Below are positions 6,536 through 59,566 of a stretch of 64,000 nucleotides of DNA, piece after piece. The stretch is from NCBI GenBank assembly GCA_049642015.1, contig JBAROI010000054.1:553-64552 (forward strand). The letters run 5' to 3'. The stretch is from Candidatus Omnitrophota bacterium (GTDB taxonomy: Bacteria; Omnitrophota; Gorgyraeia; Tantalellales; Tantalellaceae). Every line of letters begins with the position of its first letter. The first letter of the stretch is position 1. Both the position numbers and the translations under genes were made by a program. A model generated the notes under the pieces. It had not been told where the DNA came from and did not search any database. It was given only the letters and a program-made list of their open reading frames with translations.

Positions 6536-7012
6536 ATGAAAATAATAATAATCTCGACAGCTTTAATGTTATTTTACGTATTCATCGCGTTCATCGGCCT
6601 TTTCTTGTATACTAAGCCTTCCAGGGCGATCGAACTGCAGAAAAAGTTTTACGAAAAGATAAACTGGAGGATAGAGCCGGTATCGATGGAAAAGGAGATC
6701 CGCAATACCAGGATCATGGGGCTGATCTTGCTCATTGCGACCTTTGTGTCGATAATATTATCAGTCTTGAGTTGCGGGGCCTTTGCGGACGAGGACAGGA
6801 AGCTGCCAGAGAAGGGCGTGACGCAGATGGAGGACTTCGGAGGCGGGCAGTACATGACGGGCGGCGGCGAAATAGTGCAGATGGACGACCTGGGCGACGA
6901 CGATTACCTGACGACAGACGGAGAATTGATACAGACGGAAGACATGGGCGGCGGGGACTACCTGACAAGCGAGGGAAAGATACTGCAAATAGAAGGCGAA
7001 GGAAAGGATTAG
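6536..7012 (+). CDS. membrane protein with C-terminal acidic Gly-rich tandem repeats
   Basis: Two TM helices then 3.4 copies of a 19-aa unit (xEDhGGGxYhTxxGEIhQ) encoded by 57-nt DNA repeats. Confidence 0.4.
   Translation: MKIIIISTALMLFYVFIAFIGLFLYTKPSRAIELQKKFYEKINWRIEPVSMEKEIRNTRIMGLILLIATFVSIILSVLSCGAFADEDRKLPEKGVTQMEDFGGGQYMTGGGEIVQMDDLGDDDYLTTDGELIQTEDMGGGDYLTSEGKILQIEGEGKD
6827..7009 (+). repeat. 57-nt coding tandem repeat (3.2 copies)
   Basis: Encodes the 19-aa acidic Gly-rich repeat of ORF 6536..7012. Confidence 0.6.
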
Positions 7013-8054: not shown

Positions 8055-9287
8055 ATGGATAACGAACGGCGGAAAAAGCCCGAACTGGTAGCACCCGCAG
8101 GAGACTGGAGCTCGCTTTACAGCGCTTCCGAGGCCGGCGCTGATGCCGTGTATTTCGGCGTCAAGGGCCTTAACATGCGCGCGAGCGCGAGAAATTTTGA
8201 TATTCTTGAAATAAGAAAAGTAATGGATTTTCTTCGCGGGGAAGGCAGGAAGGGATACCTGGCTTTGAACGTCCTTGTCTATGACCGCGAGATGGACCTG
8301 GCAAGAAAGATCCTGGACGCGGCCCGGGAGGCGGGAGTTGACGCCGTCATCGTCTGGGACATGGCGGCGCTTTCGATCGCGAAGGAACTCGGACTTTGCG
8401 CGCACCTTTCGACCCAGGCGAGTGTCGCCAACCTGCCGGCGCTGAAGGCGTATTCCTCCCTGGGTGTTGACCGGGTCGTATTGGCAAGAGAGTGCGCCTT
8501 AAAAGACATAGAAAATATGATACAGGGCCTCTCCCGGGAAAAAATAAAATGCAGGATCGAGACGTTCATCCACGGGGCGATGTGCGTAAGCGTTTCCGGC
8601 AGATGCTTTCTTTCCCATCATTCTTTTTTCAGGTCGGCGAACAGGGGCGATTGTATCCAGCCATGCAGGAGGGAATTCACCATTATTGATAAGGACAAGG
8701 AGTGCGGTTACGTGCTGGGGGAGGATTACGTATTAAGCGCGAAAGACCTGTGCACCGTAGGATTCATAGACAAACTGATAGAGGCCGGCATTCACGCCTT
8801 CAAGATCGAAGGAAGAATGCGTCCGCCGGAATACGTAAGTGTCGTTACTTCTGTCTACAGGGACGCTATAGATTCGTTTTTTGAAGGCGGTTTTGATGAT
8901 GATAAGAAAGAGGAGCTTTTAAAAAGGCTCGGCCGGTCCTTTAACAGGGGCTTTACGAGCGGGTTCTATTTCGGCAGGCCCGATGATACCGGAGGAAGAG
9001 TAAGCAGGGAGTACGAAAAAGTCTACCTGGGAGAGGTCGTTAAGTTCTATAAAAAAGTAGGCGTTGCCGAGATAATGGTAAGGGGCGAGGCTTTGAACAC
9101 GGGCCAGGAGATATTAGTTACAGGTAAAAAAACGCCTGCCAGCTTTGCCAGGGTGACGGAAATGCAGATAGAACACGAGGCGGTTGAATCGGCCGAAAAG
9201 GGACAGGCTGTAGGGGTTAAACTTCCGTTTGCGGTCCGTCGGGACGATAAAGTTTTTCTCTGGAAGTCAAGTGAGGCCCAAACTTAG
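8055..9287 (+). CDS. peptidase U32 family protein (collagenase-like; RlhA/UbiU-type)
   Basis: ELVAPAGDW...AGADAVYFG N-terminal U32 signature, Cys-rich core, C-terminal beta-barrel domain; start moved from 8010 to in-frame ATG 8055 to avoid overlap with upstream gene. Confidence 0.8.
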   Translation: MDNERRKKPELVAPAGDWSSLYSASEAGADAVYFGVKGLNMRASARNFDILEIRKVMDFLRGEGRKGYLALNVLVYDREMDLARKILDAAREAGVDAVIVWDMAALSIAKELGLCAHLSTQASVANLPALKAYSSLGVDRVVLARECALKDIENMIQGLSREKIKCRIETFIHGAMCVSVSGRCFLSHHSFFRSANRGDCIQPCRREFTIIDKDKECGYVLGEDYVLSAKDLCTVGFIDKLIEAGIHAFKIEGRMRPPEYVSVVTSVYRDAIDSFFEGGFDDDKKEELLKRLGRSFNRGFTSGFYFGRPDDTGGRVSREYEKVYLGEVVKFYKKVGVAEIMVRGEALNTGQEILVTGKKTPASFARVTEMQIEHEAVESAEKGQAVGVKLPFAVRRDDKVFLWKSSEAQT

Positions 9288-9500
9288 CAAAGCTAAGTTT
9301 GGTGGCCGAACTTGACCCAGCCTTCTAAGCTGTTAATGGGCAGTAGTGATTTAAGAGAAAAGTTAACTGAAATACAAAAGGATTTTTGAAACTTACCAGC
9401 ATAGAAGGCTGGGTTTAATTCGCAGACGGCCTAAAAGGCCTACAATTTATGTCGTCCATAGAGGACTCCATAAATTGTCTGCTCATTAAAAAAGGAGGTA
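9268..9500 (+). repeat. family-1 structured intergenic leader element, copy A
   Basis: caagtgaggccc + ccaaacttagc/gctaagtttgg hairpin + gccgaacttgacc + cccag...ctggg stem (75-nt insertion in loop) + tttaattcgcagacggcctaaaaggcc + acaatttatg/cataaattgt hairpin + ctcattaaaaaaggagg SD. Confidence 0.7.
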
Positions 9501-12608: not shown

Positions 12609-12630
12609 GTTAAATACATCTAGCTTAACA

Positions 12631-12668
12631 AAGCCCCGGCTCGCAAAACGAGCCGGGGCTTTTTTTAT
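12631..12668 (+). terminator. rho-independent terminator
   Basis: gccccggctcg-caaaa-cgagccggggc stem-loop followed by T7 run. Confidence 0.8.
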
Positions 12669-12840
12669 ACCTGTCTAGAAGTATGTCATCCCGGGCGACT
12701 TCTGCGAAGCCCTTACTAGTTGACAGGCAAGCTGAAGGGCGAAGCAGAGGAGACCCGGGATCACATAAAAGTTTTATTTGATCCCGGATATTCGCCTTCG
12801 GCGAATTCCGGGATGACATATATTCACTTCGGTGAACCGG
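12669..12840 (+). repeat. structured inverted-repeat region (13-bp perfect IR tatgtcatcccgg/ccgggatgacata with inner UUCG-type hairpins)
   Basis: IR arms at 12682-12694 and 12808-12820; inner hairpins cggatattcgcc-ttcg-gcgaattccg and tcac-ttcg-gtga. Confidence 0.5.
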
Positions 12841-15143: not shown

Positions 15144-15306
15144 CAAGTGAGGGCCAAACTTAGCTTCGCTAAGTTTGGTGGCCGAACTTGACCCCACACC
15201 CAGAATTACCTGGGTGTGGGGTTTAATTCGCAGACGGCCTAACGGCCTACAATTTATGTCGTCCATAATGGACTCCATAAATTGTCTACTCATTAAAAAA
15301 AGGAGG
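15144..15306 (+). repeat. family-1 structured intergenic leader element, copy B
   Basis: Same modules as copy A; begins 3 nt after lpxA stop. Confidence 0.7.
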
Positions 15307-15312
15307 AGAGGA

Positions 15313-31084: not shown

Positions 31085-31236
31085 GTCAGGTGAGGCTATT
31101 ACTTATGGTGCAGAGCGCCATAAGTAATAAAGCCGAACTTGACCCCACACCCAGAATTACCTGGGTGCGGGGTTTAATTCGACCGAATAGTTTACGTGCA
31201 CGTTGTGCACGTAAACTATGGTCTCATTAAAGGAGG
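31085..31236 (+). repeat. family-1 structured intergenic leader element, copy C (module-1 hairpin replaced; module 3 of ttacgtgcac/gtgcacgtaa type)
   Basis: gtgaggc + attacttatggtg/cgccataagtaat hairpin (one G·U) + gccgaacttgacc + cccacacccag/ctgggtgcggg + tttaattcgaccgaata + hairpin + ctcattaaaggagg SD. Confidence 0.65.
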
Positions 31237-31242
31237 GGAGTC

Positions 31243-33939: not shown

Positions 33940-36900
33940 ATGGATGCCTTTCAGGAGCATTATAAAAGCTTGAACACCGAACAGAAGGAGGCCGTAGACG
34001 CGATCGACGGCCCGCTTCTTGTGCTTGCCGGTCCCGGCACGGGAAAAACGCAGCTTCTCTCGATCCGCGCTTCTAACATTATCCACCAGGAGGAGGCCCT
34101 TCCGGAGAACATCCTCATTCTCACGTTCACGAACGCGGCTGCCAGGGCCATGCGCGAGCGTCTTGCCGGGATCATCGGCCATGACGGATATAACGTTGAA
34201 GTCGAGACGTTCCACAGTTTCGCCAATTCCATAGTGCTCGAATCAGAGGGGGCGATCAAATACGTAAAGGACAAGATCGAGATAGGCGAGATCGAAAAGG
34301 TGCGCGCCCTGGAATACATTCTGGATAATGTCAAAGGGGTCGAACCTTTAAGGCCTTTCGGCGCGCCGTATATCCACCGCAGGGAGATAGAGAAAAGGAT
34401 AAGCGAAATGAAGCGCGAAGGCATTATGCCCGGAGAGTTTAAAAAAGAACTCAAAGATGTGCGGCCGGACGGTATCAACCTTGAAGAAAAACACATTTCA
34501 CGCTTAAAGGCCCTCGCGAACATATACGAAGATTATGAAAAACTCAAGGACGAAAAAGCGACTTTGCTTTTCGACGAAAGAGGTCGTATAGACTACGACG
34601 ATATGATACTCATAGCCCTGGAGGCGCTTAAGAACGACAAGGAACTACGGGAAGCGTTCAGGGAGCAATACAAATACATCATGGTAGACGAATACCAGGA
34701 CACCAACGGGGCGCAGCTGGAGCTTTTGTTCACCATCCTTGATCCGGATTCGCAGAATGTATGCTGTGTCGGAGATGACGATCAGTCTATCTACAGGTTC
34801 CAGGGGGCTACCCTTTCGAATTTCCGCGTATTGAAGGAAAGATTACCCGCACTTAAAACGATCGCCCTCAGGGACAATTACCGTTCCACCGGCGACATAA
34901 TAAATTTCTCAGGCGGGATCATCGGCCAGCTTCCGGAAGAGGAGCGGATAGCCGTGAAAAAGATCAAAGCCTGCAGGGACTACGGCGGCGGGGATATACG
35001 GTTTCTCGAGTTTACGACCGAAGAAGAGGAACTTGCCTTTATCGTAGAAGAGATAAAACGCCAGGCCGGTATCATAAAAAAAGATAAATCGCTTTCGGAA
35101 GAGGAAAGAGAAAAACCTTTTAACAATATCGCCGTTCTCGTGCGCAAGAGAGACTATATATTAAAAGTGATAGACGCTTTTCTCAAGGCCGGCATCCCTT
35201 ACGCGACTGACGGTGAGGAAGACATCCGACAGGAAAAACGCGTGCGCCAGATGCTTGACGTTCTTGAACTGGCCGACGCGGATACGGAAACCGGCGAAAG
35301 GAAGCCCCTTGCCCTGTACAAAGTGCTGACTTCAGATTACGTAGGAGCGTCTCACGCGGATATATTGAAGTTCATCGGATTCGTCAATAAAAACAGGAGC
35401 CTGGCGAAAGAAAAGGGCATCGAAGAGTTCCGCTCGTATAACCTTTTCCAGCGCTTCCAGGAACACTTCACCCGTTTCAAAAAAGATAATGACGGAGAAT
35501 TACTGCCGCCTTCGGCGGATGATTCAGCCGGGCTGGATATTTCCAGGAAACTGAAGCTTGAAGATCCTCACGCCTTGCACAAGGCGGCCTGGGCGATAGC
35601 GAGGCTCCTTACCGACGCCGGAAGCCGGCCGGTTCATGACATGCTCATGCGTTACGTGGACGATACCGGTCTCTACAGGTTTATACTGAAAAAATACGAA
35701 ACCGACAAGGTCTTGCGCGTGCGGGACCTCAGGTCGCTTGTGTCATTTATCAACAGGATAAAGGAATCCGATCTTTCTAACCCGGCAGTCGGACTCGATG
35801 ATTTTCTGGAGGAGCTGGGCCTCAGGGACATGCACGGCATGCCCATAAAGGGTCAGATGGCTACTTTGAGCCAGGACGGCGTCAGGGTTTATACGGCGCA
35901 CAGCGCCAAGGGACTTGAGTTTTATACGGTTTTTATACCTTTTTGTCTCCAGCAGAAGAGCTGGCCGCTTCGTAAAAAACCCGACGTGGTCCCGCTCCCG
36001 CCCGATATTTACAAAAGCAAGGAACGCGTTGAGGAAAAAAGTAAAATAAAGCTACTGGACCGGTATGATGAACTTCGTCTTTTTTATGTGGCTTCCAGCC
36101 GCGCGAAAGCTCACCTGGTATACAGCGCAACGCCGGCGGAAAAAGTGATAGTGAGCCCCTTTTTAAGTCACGTCGGTATTGAACCGGAATCAGGAGCCCC
36201 GGCTGATGAAGAAAAATTCCTGGGCAAGTTTCTTGAAGTCGGTTCGGAGGACGAACCCCTTAAGGGAACTTCACAAATACTAAAAGATATCGTCTCACAT
36301 CTTTCACTGAATCCCACGAGCCTGAATAATTACATCATGTGCGGGAGAAAGTATCTGTACGATAACGTTCTAATGCTTCCCGGCAGAAAGAACCAGCACC
36401 TGGTTTTCGGTAACTGCGCGCACAAGGCGCTCGAAGAGGTCTACACCGTTTTTATGGATAAGAAGATATTTCCGCCCTTCAAGGCCTTTAAAGAGGCCTT
36501 CAAGAAAGAGCTGGAGTATCAGGGCACAAATAAAGCGATAAGAGGGTGGTGCATCGACAGGCTTGAAACGCTGAAAGAGTGGTATAGGATCGAGTCGAAA
36601 TCCCCGGTCATGCCGGTCGAACTTGAAAATAAACTTGAAATAAGTTTTCCGGAAGGCTTGTTATTTAAAGGCACTTTTGACAAGATCGAAGAAGAGGGAA
36701 AGGGAACGATCCGGGTCGTCGACTACAAAACCGGCAAACCCGACAAACACGTAAAGGCGATAACGAACTGTCGCGATCTTCTGGAATACAAATGCGATGA
36801 CTATTACCGCCAGCTTATCGCGTATAAAATGCTGTACGAAGAGTCCGGCAAGAGCAGCAAAAAAGGAAAAGTCGCCAGAGGCGTCCTGCAGTTCCTGGAA

Positions 36901-37116
36901 CCCGTGGGGGCGACGGTAAAAAAATACGACCTCGAAAAAGGCACTTACAAGACAGTTACGATCGACCTGACGGACGATATGGTCAAGGAGTTGGAGAAAG
37001 TGATAGCAAAGTGCTGGAAGGACATACAAGAACTTAAATTTGACAAGCTGCCGGAAAGGGACGCAAGCGACCGGTGCGCCAGGTGTGAATTCGACTCTAT
37101 TTGCTGGGCCCGTTAG
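33940..37116 (+). CDS. UvrD/PcrA-type SF1 helicase fused to C-terminal PD-(D/E)xK nuclease with 4-Cys (Cas4/AddB-like) cluster
   Basis: Walker A AGPGTGKTQ, VDEYQDTN, helicase motifs; C-terminal VVDYKTG nuclease motif and C...CARCEFDSIC cysteines. Confidence 0.75.
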   Translation: MDAFQEHYKSLNTEQKEAVDAIDGPLLVLAGPGTGKTQLLSIRASNIIHQEEALPENILILTFTNAAARAMRERLAGIIGHDGYNVEVETFHSFANSIVLESEGAIKYVKDKIEIGEIEKVRALEYILDNVKGVEPLRPFGAPYIHRREIEKRISEMKREGIMPGEFKKELKDVRPDGINLEEKHISRLKALANIYEDYEKLKDEKATLLFDERGRIDYDDMILIALEALKNDKELREAFREQYKYIMVDEYQDTNGAQLELLFTILDPDSQNVCCVGDDDQSIYRFQGATLSNFRVLKERLPALKTIALRDNYRSTGDIINFSGGIIGQLPEEERIAVKKIKACRDYGGGDIRFLEFTTEEEELAFIVEEIKRQAGIIKKDKSLSEEEREKPFNNIAVLVRKRDYILKVIDAFLKAGIPYATDGEEDIRQEKRVRQMLDVLELADADTETGERKPLALYKVLTSDYVGASHADILKFIGFVNKNRSLAKEKGIEEFRSYNLFQRFQEHFTRFKKDNDGELLPPSADDSAGLDISRKLKLEDPHALHKAAWAIARLLTDAGSRPVHDMLMRYVDDTGLYRFILKKYETDKVLRVRDLRSLVSFINRIKESDLSNPAVGLDDFLEELGLRDMHGMPIKGQMATLSQDGVRVYTAHSAKGLEFYTVFIPFCLQQKSWPLRKKPDVVPLPPDIYKSKERVEEKSKIKLLDRYDELRLFYVASSRAKAHLVYSATPAEKVIVSPFLSHVGIEPESGAPADEEKFLGKFLEVGSEDEPLKGTSQILKDIVSHLSLNPTSLNNYIMCGRKYLYDNVLMLPGRKNQHLVFGNCAHKALEEVYTVFMDKKIFPPFKAFKEAFKKELEYQGTNKAIRGWCIDRLETLKEWYRIESKSPVMPVELENKLEISFPEGLLFKGTFDKIEEEGKGTIRVVDYKTGKPDKHVKAITNCRDLLEYKCDDYYRQLIAYKMLYEESGKSSKKGKVARGVLQFLEPVGATVKKYDLEKGTYKTVTIDLTDDMVKELEKVIAKCWKDIQELKFDKLPERDASDRCARCEFDSICWAR

Positions 37117-37160
37117 AAATCTATTGGGGCAAAAGGGTTTAACGCAATTTCTAACGGGCC
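37108..37160 (+). repeat. family-3 hairpin (ggcccgttagaaat / atttctaacgggcc), copy 1
   Basis: 14-bp perfect stem, 25-nt loop; helicase-nuclease stop TAG (37114-37116) lies inside the 5' arm. Confidence 0.6.
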
Positions 37161-40863: not shown

Positions 40864-41283
40864 ATGCAAAAATTCAACGTAAGCCCAGCAAAAGAAAAAA
40901 ATCTTAAAGACAAAATGTGCCGCTTCGGCATAAAAGAGCGCGACCTGACGGAGAAGTTCATCAGGTCAAGCGGCAAAGGCGGACAGCACGTCAATAAAAC
41001 GTCTACCTGCGTATACCTGAAGCATAATCCGACGGGTATAGAGGTCAAATGCGGCAAAGAGCGCTCTCAGGTCCTGAACCGGTTTCTGGCCCGCAGGATG
41101 CTGGCGGGGAAGATCGAGACGATGGTGCTGGGAAAAGAAGCGGAAGAAAAAAAGCGCATTGCGAAAATACGCAGACAAAAGCGCAAAAGGTCCAAAAGGG
41201 CAAAAGAAAAAATGCTCGCTACCAAGAAAAGACGAGCTGAGAAGAAGACCCTGCGCAAGAAAGTAGGACTTGAGAACGATTAG
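40864..41283 (+). CDS. arfB: alternative ribosome-rescue factor ArfB (peptidyl-tRNA hydrolase, GGQ)
   Basis: SGKGGQHVNKT motif, short size, Lys/Arg-rich C-terminal tail; start uncertain (40840 TTG, 40864 ATG or 40915 ATG). Confidence 0.7.
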   Translation: MQKFNVSPAKEKNLKDKMCRFGIKERDLTEKFIRSSGKGGQHVNKTSTCVYLKHNPTGIEVKCGKERSQVLNRFLARRMLAGKIETMVLGKEAEEKKRIAKIRRQKRKRSKRAKEKMLATKKRRAEKKTLRKKVGLEND

Positions 41284-41293
41284 TAGCGCTCTG

Positions 41294-41393
41294 ATAACCG
41301 GTGAAGGGTACTCCGCGCGCAGTTTCCGAAAAATAGTAATCTTAGGTCATTGTTTTCGGACTGTTTGAGCACGGAGTACCCTTCACCGGTTAT
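41294..41393 (+). repeat. family-2 long hairpin element (copy 1)
   Basis: 22-bp perfect outer stem ataaccggtgaagggtactccg/cggagtacccttcaccggttat around conserved core cgcgcagtttccgaaaaat...ttttcggaNtgtttgagcacgg; begins 11 nt after arfB stop. Confidence 0.6.
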
Positions 41394-41430
41394 TAAGGCG
41401 CCGCTAGTACGGGAACGACAAGGGTAGCAG

Positions 41431-56463: not shown

Positions 56464-57373
56464 AAAAGTACGAAATAAATTAGTCGAAATATGCGATGCA
56501 ACCGGAAGCCGTGTCGCTTTTGACGAGGATCTTTCCACGCACAGCACGATTTCCGTCGGCGGAAAAGCAAAAGCCTGGTTTGTGCCTTCTTCTCTTGAAG
56601 CCTTGCGCGAAGCGGTCCTTTTTCTGTGCGATTCGGGAACATCTTCAATTGTCGTGGGCAACGGCAGCAACGTCCTGATGCCGGATAACGGGCTGGAAGT
56701 CGCGATCAACCTGGACAACGGTTTTTTCGTTAAGAAAGAGTTCGAAGACAGAAAAGTCCTTGCCGGCGCGGGTGTGGACCTGGGGGGTCTCATTTCCGAT
56801 TGCTGCCTGAGGGGACTCTCGGGGATTGAAGGGCTTGTGGGGATACCGGCTACGGTCGGCGGAGCCCTGGCCACGAACGCTTCATACAAAACGGCGATAA
56901 GCGATTGTCTCGAAAGCGTCCGTGTCATGAATAAAGAAGGTAACGCGAGATGGGTGAAAAAAGGTGACATCAGGTTCGGTTATCGCTCATCTTCTTTTAA
57001 GAACGGTGAAGTGATCGTCGAGGCGGTTTTCAACCTGGCTGAAATGTCGCCGGACCAGCTGAAGCAAGCGCTGAAGGCGAATTTTTGCGACAAAAAACAT
57101 AAACAGCCTCTCGGCGTAAAGACCCTGGGCTGCATATTCAAGAACCCGGAAGGCAGCGAAAGAAAAGCCGGAGAGCTGATCGAGCTAGCAGGCATGAAAG
57201 GCGCGAGCGTTGGCGACGCCCAGGTATCGCAGATGCACGCCAACTTCATCGTCAACAGCGGAAACGCGACCGCACGCGACGTTATTGTGCTCATTGAGGA
57301 AGTGCGCCAGCAAGTCTTCGAGAAGTTTTCGATCGCCCTGGAGCTCGAAATTGAAATATTAGATACCCGGTAG
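56456..57373 (+). CDS. murB: UDP-N-acetylenolpyruvoylglucosamine reductase
   Basis: FAD-binding VVGNGSNVL motif; C-terminal MurB domain. Confidence 0.85.
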   Translation: MTEKVRNKLVEICDATGSRVAFDEDLSTHSTISVGGKAKAWFVPSSLEALREAVLFLCDSGTSSIVVGNGSNVLMPDNGLEVAINLDNGFFVKKEFEDRKVLAGAGVDLGGLISDCCLRGLSGIEGLVGIPATVGGALATNASYKTAISDCLESVRVMNKEGNARWVKKGDIRFGYRSSSFKNGEVIVEAVFNLAEMSPDQLKQALKANFCDKKHKQPLGVKTLGCIFKNPEGSERKAGELIELAGMKGASVGDAQVSQMHANFIVNSGNATARDVIVLIEEVRQQVFEKFSIALELEIEILDTR

Positions 57374-57374
57374 A

Positions 57375-57463
57375 TTGTGTGCGGTATTCCGCGCGCAGTT
57401 TCCGAAAAATCGTATTCTAGTTTAGCGTTTTTCGGATGTTTGAGCACGGAATACCGCACACAA
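57375..57463 (+). repeat. family-2 long hairpin element (copy 2)
   Basis: Outer stem ttgtgtgcggtattccg/cggaataccgcacacaa (different sequence, same pairing) around the same conserved core as 41294..41393; begins 2 nt after murB stop. Confidence 0.6.
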
Positions 57464-57486
57464 GCTGCCGGGGTGCTAAGATTACT

Positions 57487-58416
57487 ATGAAAGAGTTAGA
57501 TGCGCTTAGAAAATACGAGATAGGAGTTTTGGCTGGCGGAAGTTCGAGCGAGCGGGAAATAAGCCTGAAGAGCGGAAGAGCCGTTTTCGATGCTTTGCGC
57601 GAGGCAGGCCTTGACGCGGCGCTCATCGACGTCAAAGAGGACGACTTTGCTTTACTGGTGAACGAGGCCGGCATAGACCTGGCCTTTATCGCCCTGCATG
57701 GCAGGTTCGGCGAGGACGGGACGGTCCAGAAGATGCTGTTCGAAAGAGGCGTTCTTTACACTGGCTCAGGGCCGGAAGCCTCCCGTATGGCGCTCGACAA
57801 GATCGCGTCAAAAGAGCGGTTAAGCGGGAAAGACCTGAAGACTCCCGAGTACATGGTTACGGAGCTCGGAGAAAGCATACCGTACGAAAGCGTCTGGTTC
57901 CCCTGTGTCGTCAAGCCCCAGCATGAAGGGTCGAGCATAGGCCTTACGGTCGTTTCCTCGAAGGAGCACCTGGCAGAGGCGGTGGACAGGGCTTCTAATT
58001 ACAGCAGGCGCATCATCATCGAAAAATTTATTGAGGGCAGAGAGATAACAGTCGGCATACTGGAGAACAGGGCGCTGCCCGTGGTAGAGATCGTCCCCGA
58101 AGGAGGGTGCTACGATTTTAACGCCAAGTATCAATCGGCAAATACCAGGTACATCGTTCCGGCTGATATCGACGAAGACGTTTTTAAACGCGCCCAGGAA
58201 ACGGCGGTAAACGCCCACAACGCCCTTGGCTGCGAGGAATTCTCCAGGGTGGATATGCGGCTTTCGTCCGAGGGAGAATTATTTATTCTGGAGGTCAACA
58301 CCATCCCGGGACTCACCGAGAGGAGTTTGCTTCCGATGGCAGCAAAGGCGGTGGGCTTGAGTTTTACCGAGCTATGCGTTAAGATACTTGTGGGAGCGAT
58401 CAGGAAAGTCAAGTGA
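57487..58416 (+). CDS. ddl: D-alanine--D-alanine ligase
   Basis: ATP-grasp; GVLAGGSSSEREISL N-terminus; start at MKELDAL (57487) within track ORF 57436. Confidence 0.85.
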   Translation: MKELDALRKYEIGVLAGGSSSEREISLKSGRAVFDALREAGLDAALIDVKEDDFALLVNEAGIDLAFIALHGRFGEDGTVQKMLFERGVLYTGSGPEASRMALDKIASKERLSGKDLKTPEYMVTELGESIPYESVWFPCVVKPQHEGSSIGLTVVSSKEHLAEAVDRASNYSRRIIIEKFIEGREITVGILENRALPVVEIVPEGGCYDFNAKYQSANTRYIVPADIDEDVFKRAQETAVNAHNALGCEEFSRVDMRLSSEGELFILEVNTIPGLTERSLLPMAAKAVGLSFTELCVKILVGAIRKVK

Positions 58417-58565
58417 GGGCCAAACTTAGCGAAGCTAAGTTTGCTGGCCGAACTTGACCCCACACCCAGCATATTATGAACATAGCATGCTGGGTGTGGG
58501 GTTTAATTCGACCGAATACCTTACGTGCACAGTGTGCACGTAAGGTATGGTCTCATTAAAGGAGG
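58410..58565 (+). repeat. family-1 structured intergenic leader element, copy D
   Basis: caagtgagggcc + module-1 hairpin + gccgaacttgacc + cccacacccag...ctgggtgtggg + ttacgtgcac/gtgcacgtaa hairpin with outer stem acct/aggt (agtt/aact in copy C) + ctcattaaaggagg SD; ddl stop TGA lies inside the element. Confidence 0.7.
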
Positions 58566-58573
58566 ATAAATAA

Positions 58574-59350
58574 GTGGCGAGAAGAAAAAAAGGACAGGAT
58601 TTTGGAAATCTTTTCAAGAATCTCTTTAGCAGCAAACTTGTTTTGATAGGTCTTTTGTGCATTGTTGTAACAGGAGGTTTTTTTTACGGCATCTGGTATT
58701 TTCTGCATAATGACCCGTTTTTCACTATAAACAGCGTATCGGTGAACGAGGAAGGGGATTATTCCCTGTGGAAAGGGAAGGATAGGCTCGGCAGGCTTTA
58801 TGCGGGAAGGAACATATTTAGCGTAAATCCCGCGGAGATAGAGATAATGATAAGAGATGAAGCCCCGCAGCTGGATACTGTAACCGTGCGGCGGATCATG
58901 CCGGACAGGCTTGAAATAGACGTTGTTCCCCGCAGACCCGTGGCATTTATAGACGCGGGGGAACCTGTTATTATCGACGCTGAGGCGATCGTCTTGAGCC
59001 GGGAAGGCAGCACAGGGGATCTGGTCCAGATAAAAGGGATCAGGTTCTTTTTTTCAAGCCCTTCGGTGGGCGAGCGTATCGACAACGCGATGCTGTCCAA
59101 AGCCCTGGCGCTTCTGGATGCCTTGCGCGAGAAAGGCATCTCCGGAAAAATCCCCGTTAAATTTATTGATATCTCCGACCGGAACGATATCCAGTTCAGC
59201 ATTCTTGACGTCAGGATAAAGATGGGAAACAGCGGTTTTCCCGGAAAAATAATCAAACTCAAAGAGATACTGGATGACCCCGATGTTGACATCAAAGACA
59301 TAAAATACATCGATCTGAGGTTCGAGAAGGCGGTCATATCTCCGAAGTGA
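58574..59350 (+). CDS. ftsQ: cell-division protein FtsQ (POTRA)
   Basis: GTG start 8 nt after GGAGG; single TM then POTRA-like domain; dcw position. Confidence 0.7.
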   Translation: MARRKKGQDFGNLFKNLFSSKLVLIGLLCIVVTGGFFYGIWYFLHNDPFFTINSVSVNEEGDYSLWKGKDRLGRLYAGRNIFSVNPAEIEIMIRDEAPQLDTVTVRRIMPDRLEIDVVPRRPVAFIDAGEPVIIDAEAIVLSREGSTGDLVQIKGIRFFFSSPSVGERIDNAMLSKALALLDALREKGISGKIPVKFIDISDRNDIQFSILDVRIKMGNSGFPGKIIKLKEILDDPDVDIKDIKYIDLRFEKAVISPK

Positions 59351-59489
59351 AGTAAGGACACAACTTACGGAGTGAAACGACGTAAGTTGTAAGTCCGAAC
59401 TTCATCCTGAGCGAACGAACAAAGTGAGTGAGTCGAAGGATCTCAAGAAAGATTCCTCGACTCCCCTGGGTCTTCGCCCGGGGTCGCTC

Positions 59490-59520
59490 GCCCCGTTAGA
59501 AACGGAATTTCTAACGGGGC
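59490..59520 (+). repeat. family-3 hairpin (gccccgttagaaa / tttctaacggggc), copy 2
   Basis: 13-bp stem, 5-nt loop, in ftsQ-ftsA spacer; shares ccgttagaaa arm with copy 1. Confidence 0.6.
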
Positions 59521-59566
59521 TCGGAATGACATCAGGAAGACTAATGAAGTCGAAGGATCTAAAAAG

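Follow-up and report, generated by a model that had tools for sequence, protein, structure and literature searches.

The Correia/NEMIS elements of Neisseria and the ERIC/IRU elements of enterobacteria are hairpin MITEs of ~100–150 bp that are non-coding and palindromic almost from end to end. They lie in intergenic regions, are flanked by a duplicated TA dinucleotide, are co-transcribed as hairpins within mRNAs, and are polymorphic among strains for presence and absence. Their terminal inverted repeats are common to tens to hundreds of copies, and ERIC is best conserved at its center. Integron attC sites are imperfect hairpins of 57–141 nt that are found right after ORFs and are defined by structure more than by sequence; their outer R and L boxes are conserved and their centers variable, and the cassettes form arrays beside an integrase. 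To our knowledge, transposition of the IS200/IS605 type leaves no target duplication. REP sequences and REPINs (PMC3116915, PMC3337134) are extragenic palindromic doublets that form long hairpins, are non-autonomous and RAYT-mobilized, and persist within lineages; REPINs have conserved REP ends around a less conserved spacer and occur in tens to hundreds of copies. Casposase or Cas1-type integration produces target-site duplications of 14–15 bp and preferentially targets the extreme 3′ terminus of a host gene (PMC6977970).

The window analyzed here, a 64,000-nt stretch of DNA from an uncultivated Candidatus Omnitrophota species represented by several near-identical MAGs and run assemblies, contains two long hairpins, c1 at 41294–41393 on the arfB side and c2 at 57375–57463 on the murB side, both of which had been reported by the initial annotation and were recovered at the same positions. 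Their perfect outer stems of 22 bp (c1) and 17 bp (c2; + strand, 5′ arm 57375–57391 and 3′ arm 57447–57463) were confirmed as well. These stems had been considered completely different in sequence, which holds beyond a GGTA/TACC boundary and fails for the inner 9 bp: the stem GGTAYTCCG/CGGARTACC, to which the inner 9 nt of the c2 5′ arm belong, is common to c1 and c2, closes a conserved block and carries one compensatory change from C-G to T-A. This shared block is larger than earlier described and extends over 73–74 nt, from 41307 to 41380 in c1 (+ strand; GGTACTCCGCGCGCAGTTTCCGAAAAAT, an 18-nt loop and TTTTCGGACTGTTTGAGCACGGAGTACC; nhmmer profile E-value of 2e-13) and from 57383 to 57455 in c2 (+ strand; nhmmer E-value of 6.5e-13), the latter having a 1-nt deletion relative to c1 (GGACTG to GGATG). 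By blastn, the two centers aligned in one segment of 28/28 with 1 mismatch and another of 19/19 with 1 mismatch. In the center common to the copies (71–74 nt), the 9-bp closing stem is followed by an asymmetric internal loop, which is conserved, then by an inner hairpin (TCCGAAAA/TTTTCGGA) and, at the tip, by an apical loop of ~18 nt that is conserved in part. A K-turn in the internal loop was rejected on a by-eye check, since the non-bulged strand does not have the required GA.

Palindromy was found to reach further out than the perfect stems, namely over 41281–41321/41366–41406 at c1 and, weakening outward, over 57350–57397/57441–57488 at c2, where the strong palindrome covers 57366–57473. 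The inserted palindrome of c1 was placed at 41284–41406 (+ strand, 123 nt), with a right end that may lie at 41410 and a left end that is ambiguous within TAG/TAG, and that of c2 at 57362–57485 (+ strand, deduced boundaries). Inserts of ~115–127 nt have no coding capacity and hold only spurious run-through ORFs. As RNA, both hairpins are highly stable, with folding energies of −71.9 kcal/mol for c1 (z = −11.3) and −67.3 kcal/mol for c2 (z = −12.2), and 0/200 shuffles were as stable in either case. A search with the core motif, the 19-mer CGCGCAGTTTCCGAAAAAT, retrieved exactly two occurrences in the window, and the 3′ half of the core is likewise present at both sites. With 3 mismatches a third match appeared at 36402 (at least three matches in 0/100 shuffles), which is inside a coding region and was rejected as a chance match rather than a family member. 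A further copy, c3, was found elsewhere in the same species.

Comparison of assemblies with and without c1 proved that this copy is an insertion, shown by a presence/absence polymorphism with a target-site duplication. The spacer between arfB and the downstream transporter gene is 147 nt in the window and in contigs L042 and L043, in which c1 is identical, and 8 nt in L044 and L045, which are devoid of c1; the transporter protein is 100% identical on all four contigs, and L044 and L045 share 99.7–99.9% identity with the window on either side of the site. The empty allele reads ...GGAGAACGACTAG GGTAGCAG ATG..., and the filled allele ...TGAGAACGATTAG / TAGCGCTCTG...GCCGCTA gtac / GGGAACGACAAG GGTAGCAG ATG..., the insert (41284 to 41406 or 41410) being palindromic from its first base and over its whole length. 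The target GAGAACGACTAG, 12–14 nt in length, occurs once in the empty allele and on both sides of c1 in the filled allele, and the two BLAST segments of the window versus L044 overlap by 14 nt. The left copy of the duplication (GAGAACGAtTAG, 41272–41283, unstranded) includes the arfB stop codon and agrees with the empty-allele copy at 11/12 positions, while in the right copy (GgGAACGACaAG, 41411–41422, unstranded) the stop is mutated to AAG and the agreement is 10/12; left and right copies agree with each other at 9/12 positions. In the sister lineages L040 and L041, with transporters of 90% and 87% identity, the arfB and transporter genes overlap as ATGA and TAGTG, and their empty junctions are gaggaATGAagaaa and gacTAGTGggg, respectively. 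The comparison of filled and empty alleles shows that the copy-specific outer stem of c1 arrived as part of the inserted DNA, and was neither an older local hairpin nor a copy of the flank. The opposite event, in which the empty allele is a deletion product, was rejected because a crossover between the repeats would give AAG where TAG is observed, and the outgroups resemble the empty allele too. A TA target duplication of the IS630/Correia kind, which by eye fits c2 and c3, is refuted at c1 by the empty allele.

Immediately to the left of c1, a cluster of substitutions distinguishes the filled from the empty alleles (41222–41283, unstranded; 11 mismatches in 62 nt). Over 5.3 kb the two alleles differ at 13 positions, 11 of which are in this cluster and 2 in the other ~5.2 kb, and 9/11 cluster substitutions show G/C in the empty versus A/T in the filled allele. 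Two explanations offer themselves, import of the filled allele from a diverged lineage and mutagenic repair during the insertion. The cluster also alters five residues of the basic tail of ArfB.

Like c1, for which this is proven, c2 looks like an insertion. The element supplies the last three murB codons (D-T-R) and the stop codon at 57371–57373. In a relative with 67% MurB identity (L005), murB and ddl overlap as ATGA, and deleting 57362–57487 from the window restores GAAATATTATGAAAGAG, the same ATGA stop/start overlap, which indicates that murB gained its three extra codons and stop from c2. This copy is identical in seven other assemblies, and only weak candidates for a target duplication were found. 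Its 3′ flank CTAAGATTACTAT (57476–57488, + strand) overlaps the ddl start codon at 57487. Gene callers start ddl from an ATG at 57436 inside c2; this ATG was created by the 1-nt deletion in the center of c2, and the true start is likely 57487 in the same frame, so that the annotated Ddl carries a spurious 17-residue extension in several assemblies. The initial placement of the hairpins directly after stop codons therefore stands for c1 only, because at c2 the element itself supplies the end of murB, and c3 lies in a divergent promoter region. The c1 loop ATAGTAATCTTAG (41333–41345) is the exact reverse complement of 57476–57488 over 13 nt, and a match of at least 11 nt between non-core parts was obtained in 17/5000 shuffles (p ~0.003); the same apical loop agrees with the last murB codons at 10/13 positions. 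In another Omnitrophota member with 62% MurB identity, the murB–ddl spacer holds an unrelated hairpin of ~190 nt (ATTGATGTTTAGGT...ACCTAAACATCAAT; L006, 3780–3970), and the junction is colonized independently there. A second metagenome scan, directed at MurB-related loci, returned relatives at 31–40% identity only.

The third copy is located between the divergent genes pfkB and hflX, upstream of a gene and not after one. Its host is the species of the window, as the HflX encoded there shares 100% identity with that of a scaffold from the window's sample. c3 has the same center with few changes, enclosed by a third unrelated pair of arms (~23–31 nt); it is identical in every assembly examined, and here too only weak candidates for a target duplication were found. 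In a sister lineage (L039), the gene order around hflX differs and hflX is relocated; a CIRCE operator, TTAGCACTC-N9-GAGTGCTAA, was observed upstream of hrcA at 6840–6870 of the same contig. One MAG contig begins inside c3 (L038, 1–64), which suggests that hairpins of this kind break short-read assemblies and that copy numbers in MAGs are lower bounds.

Searches beyond these loci gave a narrow distribution. A strict pattern of the center matched a single place among 185,579 species representatives, which is c3, and had 0 matches in JGI metagenomes, and a looser pattern gave 4 matches in viral contigs, all by chance and without the partner half. No related copy was detected by BLAST against plasmids and phages, and no diverged or further copy by the nhmmer profile over 447 kb of collected sequence; tRNA and tmRNA genes are absent. 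Rfam at gathering and permissive thresholds returned no family, and the generic miRNA-hairpin models that matched were all below threshold. So far as the evidence goes, the family is limited to one Omnitrophota species and has about three members, which are dispersed among unrelated gene contexts.

The anatomy initially proposed for c1 and c2, a conserved interior between complementary and non-homologous arms, was borne out in all copies. Local alignments of the arms against shuffles gave p values of 0.06–0.99, hence no significant similarity between the termini of one copy and another, and pairing is nonetheless kept. Similarity falls abruptly from ~97% to random exactly at GGTA/TACC, and the arm length is similar in all copies at ~23 nt on each side. 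Homologous arms shifted by an indel (GATAACCGGT versus GATACCCGGT) were rejected at p = 0.16, with p = 0.99 for the right arms. The apical loops are ~50% alike between c1 and c2 and match at 13/19 positions between c1 and c3; with arms that have diverged further than the loops, plain divergence with compensatory change is disfavored. No donor of, or other match to, the arms was found in the 447 kb of collected sequence, and 18-mers from the arms had no exact match in viral contigs. Copying of the arms from local flanks by fold-back or template switching was rejected, as the empty c1 allele shows that neither arm derives from the ancestral flanks; the sole flank-like case is that of the outermost 13 nt of c2, which pair at 10/13 positions with murB codons. 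Covariation of the stems is equally real: the three-copy alignment keeps the pairing, with 94% of cells paired and 13/35 pairs changed on both sides, a result reached in 0/500 shuffles, and controls in slid registers were 30–47% paired. Nevertheless, a DNA palindrome yields the same signal, and covariation therefore cannot tell RNA function from DNA symmetry.

We conclude, with a probability of roughly 0.6, that c1–c3 are low-copy, non-autonomous, foldback MITE-like DNA palindromes of ~120 nt inserted between genes. On this reading they are neither terminators nor conserved gene-specific cis-regulators. The layout had been taken by the initial annotation to exclude a mobile element and to favor a structured RNA or a protein-binding motif; this is not supported in view of the polymorphism and target duplication of c1, and a dedicated structured RNA is further disfavored as relatives have abutting or overlapping genes at each of the window sites, the contexts are unrelated and no other species representative was matched. 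In common with MITEs, the elements are short and non-coding, have a target duplication and a presence/absence polymorphism (both at c1), and have empty sites in relatives, while terminal inverted repeats are not common to the copies, which share only the center. Conservation at orthologous positions, as expected of a cis-regulatory RNA, was not seen, the elements being absent in relatives and polymorphic within the species. Several observations count against a mobile palindrome: the known copies number only three, c1 alone has a clear target duplication, the termini are completely different where ordinary MITEs have common ones, the copies have a sense bias, and neither a donor copy with the c1 arms nor a transposase turned up in the sequence covered. 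Specifically against a recent transposition of c1, the adjacent substitution cluster could mean import by recombination.

For a mobile palindrome of this type, the conserved center would be the part recognized by the mobilizing machinery, and the arms would need only to pair. Because c1 and c2 split formerly coupled, co-directional gene pairs, they are probably transcribed within polycistronic mRNA, where each would form an imperfect hairpin of ~50 bp and the stop/start coupling would be removed. Such a hairpin might serve as an RNase III site or as a barrier to 3′-exonucleases, and a secondary effect at the RNA level, for example 3′-end protection or processing, may be suspected from the sense orientation of the copies and their better folding on that strand. 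The net effect of the insertions is probably near neutral, and no evidence was seen for a gene-specific regulatory role.

In a rival explanation, the element is a functional structured RNA, whose center would bind a protein or RNase and whose long arms of arbitrary sequence would form a stable mRNA hairpin that protects the 3′ end of the upstream cistron or directs RNase III; it may have come by insertion and still have been kept for this function. Each of the three copies lies in the sense orientation relative to the genes that flank or follow it, and the sense strand folds better by 4–10 kcal/mol in every copy (sense versus antisense: −71.9 versus −67.7 for c1, −67.3 versus −62.0 for c2, and −76.3 versus −66.0 kcal/mol for c3). 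The imperfections in the arms are mostly G.U by our own count, with 6 G.U versus 1 A.C on the sense strand. In addition, conservation extends to the asymmetric internal loop and to part of the apical loop, compensatory changes affect more than a third of the pairs (13/35), and neither c2 nor c3 varies in any assembly examined. The sense-strand bias, which hints at selection at the RNA level, could also result from strand-biased mutation, and an excess of G.U could also be explained by strand-biased C-to-T changes, while conserved pairing is expected of any DNA palindrome. Moreover, c1 is dispensable, as some strains do without it, sister lineages have nothing at the c1 site and a more distant relative nothing at the c2 site, and the unrelated gene contexts, the lack of an Rfam family and a center unmatched in other species all speak against a maintained RNA, which we regard as unlikely. 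A terminator or attenuator of the downstream gene would account for a strong hairpin at or just after the arfB and murB stop codons. As the initial annotation had pointed out, however, neither c1 nor c2 is followed by a T-run and they are not canonical terminators; terminator as well as promoter scans were negative at both sites, and canonical terminators with a GC-rich stem and a T-run are used elsewhere in the genome, including the window. Given also that c2 is inside the dcw (division and cell-wall) operon at murB–ddl, that c3 is upstream of a gene and that strains and relatives manage without the element, rho-independent termination is very hard to credit. Equally hard to credit is a guide-bearing hairpin, in which the arms or the apical loop would target other nucleic acids in the manner of antisense or spacer sequences, although the arms are unique, ~23 nt long and similar in length in all copies, and the c1 loop can pair perfectly along 13 nt with the region of the ddl translation start beside c2: the arms and their 18-mers went unmatched in the 447 kb and in viral contigs, respectively, on which ground they were rejected as spacers or guides, and besides the dispensability of c1, they are sequestered in a perfect duplex.

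How the shared center came to be joined to unrelated arms admits other histories. If only the 74-nt center, with its 9-bp inverted ends, was mobile and landed in the apex of three pre-existing unrelated hairpins, similarity would drop from ~97% to random exactly where it does; swapped or enlarged inner hairpins are seen in other hairpin families of the genome, and the diverged flank of the filled c1 allele may reflect a long separate history with room for two events. But pairing continues uninterrupted from the arms into the conserved block, and neither a remnant loop nor a target duplication marks the center/arm junction, which argues against simple nested insertion, since this would require targets that were perfect palindromes lacking any loop. 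Arms and center are missing together from the empty c1 allele, and a core-less version of any arm pair is absent from the 447 kb of collected sequence, so such a nested origin is distinctly doubtful. More improbable yet is a structure-defined mobile hairpin, of which the 74-nt center is inherited and the ~23-nt arms are rebuilt at each transposition. As one example, a single-stranded intermediate might snap back and prime the synthesis of its own arms, and the blunt hairpin would then be integrated in a casposase-like fashion by a ruler-type integrase making 12–14-bp staggered cuts at gene 3′ ends. This model would yield unrelated yet perfectly paired arms, an abrupt drop in similarity, a constant arm length and a long target duplication.

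The host genome is compact, yet it is peppered with other inserted families of intergenic hairpins. A composite intergenic module occurs in four copies in the window (9280–9500, 15160–15310, 31130–31240 and 58420–58575), arranged in the order AAACTTAGCnAAGCTAAGTTTG, GGCCGAACTTGACCC[hairpin]GGGTTTAATTCG, second hairpin, CTCATTAAAGGAGG and start codon, and provides the downstream gene with a strong Shine-Dalgarno sequence. One copy (9307–9422) has had its inner hairpin replaced, and another (58446–58513) shows an enlarged loop; being conserved outside and variable inside, the module is the mirror image of the c1–c3 family. A small hairpin family, GCCCCGTTAGAAA...TTTCTAACGGGGC, is present in two intergenic regions (37107–37160 and 59490–59521), four consecutive hairpins occupy the spacer at 59351–59566, and a large nested structure with an outer stem (ATGTCATCCCGG/CCGGGATGACAT) around three inner hairpins at 12683–12822 lies just downstream of a canonical terminator (12627–12672).

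Several implications follow from treating c1–c3 as mobile palindromes. A mobile DNA palindrome can produce a conserved core with covarying stems, and an empty-site test is needed before such a layout is read as RNA covariation. The elements distort annotation, as seen in the three codons and new stop added to murB, the false start of ddl and the contig that starts within c3. Insertions into a very compact genome can split ATGA-coupled gene pairs, and one pair split in this way is kept in every assembly examined. The layout together with the duplication might point to an undescribed mobilization of hairpins; with three copies, the wider importance is modest unless a mechanism is shown.

Compared with the described systems, c1–c3 resemble the Correia/NEMIS and ERIC/IRU elements in size, lack of coding capacity, palindromic hairpin, intergenic insertion with a target duplication, probable co-transcription with the neighbors and strain polymorphism, and ERIC further in that the center is its best conserved part; they differ from them in their copy-specific termini, their number of three and the 12–14-nt duplication. 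With REPINs (PMC3116915, PMC3337134), they share long extragenic hairpins, non-autonomy and persistence within a lineage; in contrast to REPINs, the center is conserved and the ends are copy-specific, the copies are three, and no GTAG-type REP motif is present. attC sites are similar hairpins after ORFs, whereas in the present family the center is conserved, the ends are variable and the neighbors are housekeeping genes. The likeness to intrinsic terminators is a stable hairpin downstream of a stop codon, but here there is no U-tract, the stems are far longer, and the elements lie within operons and are dispensable. The duplication at c1, which is 12–14 nt long and covers the last arfB codons and the stop, recalls casposase integration (PMC6977970). 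Casposons span several kilobases, encode Cas1 and PolB and are bounded by defined terminal repeats, whereas c1 is a 123-nt palindrome; the resemblance, drawn from the length of one duplication with nothing that ties c1 to a Cas1 gene, may serve only as a lead. The object is real but largely ordinary, a rare mobile palindrome, and what is unusual about it is its layout: a shared center with copy-specific arms which, combined with a 12–14-nt duplication, fits no standard MITE, REP or attC scheme.
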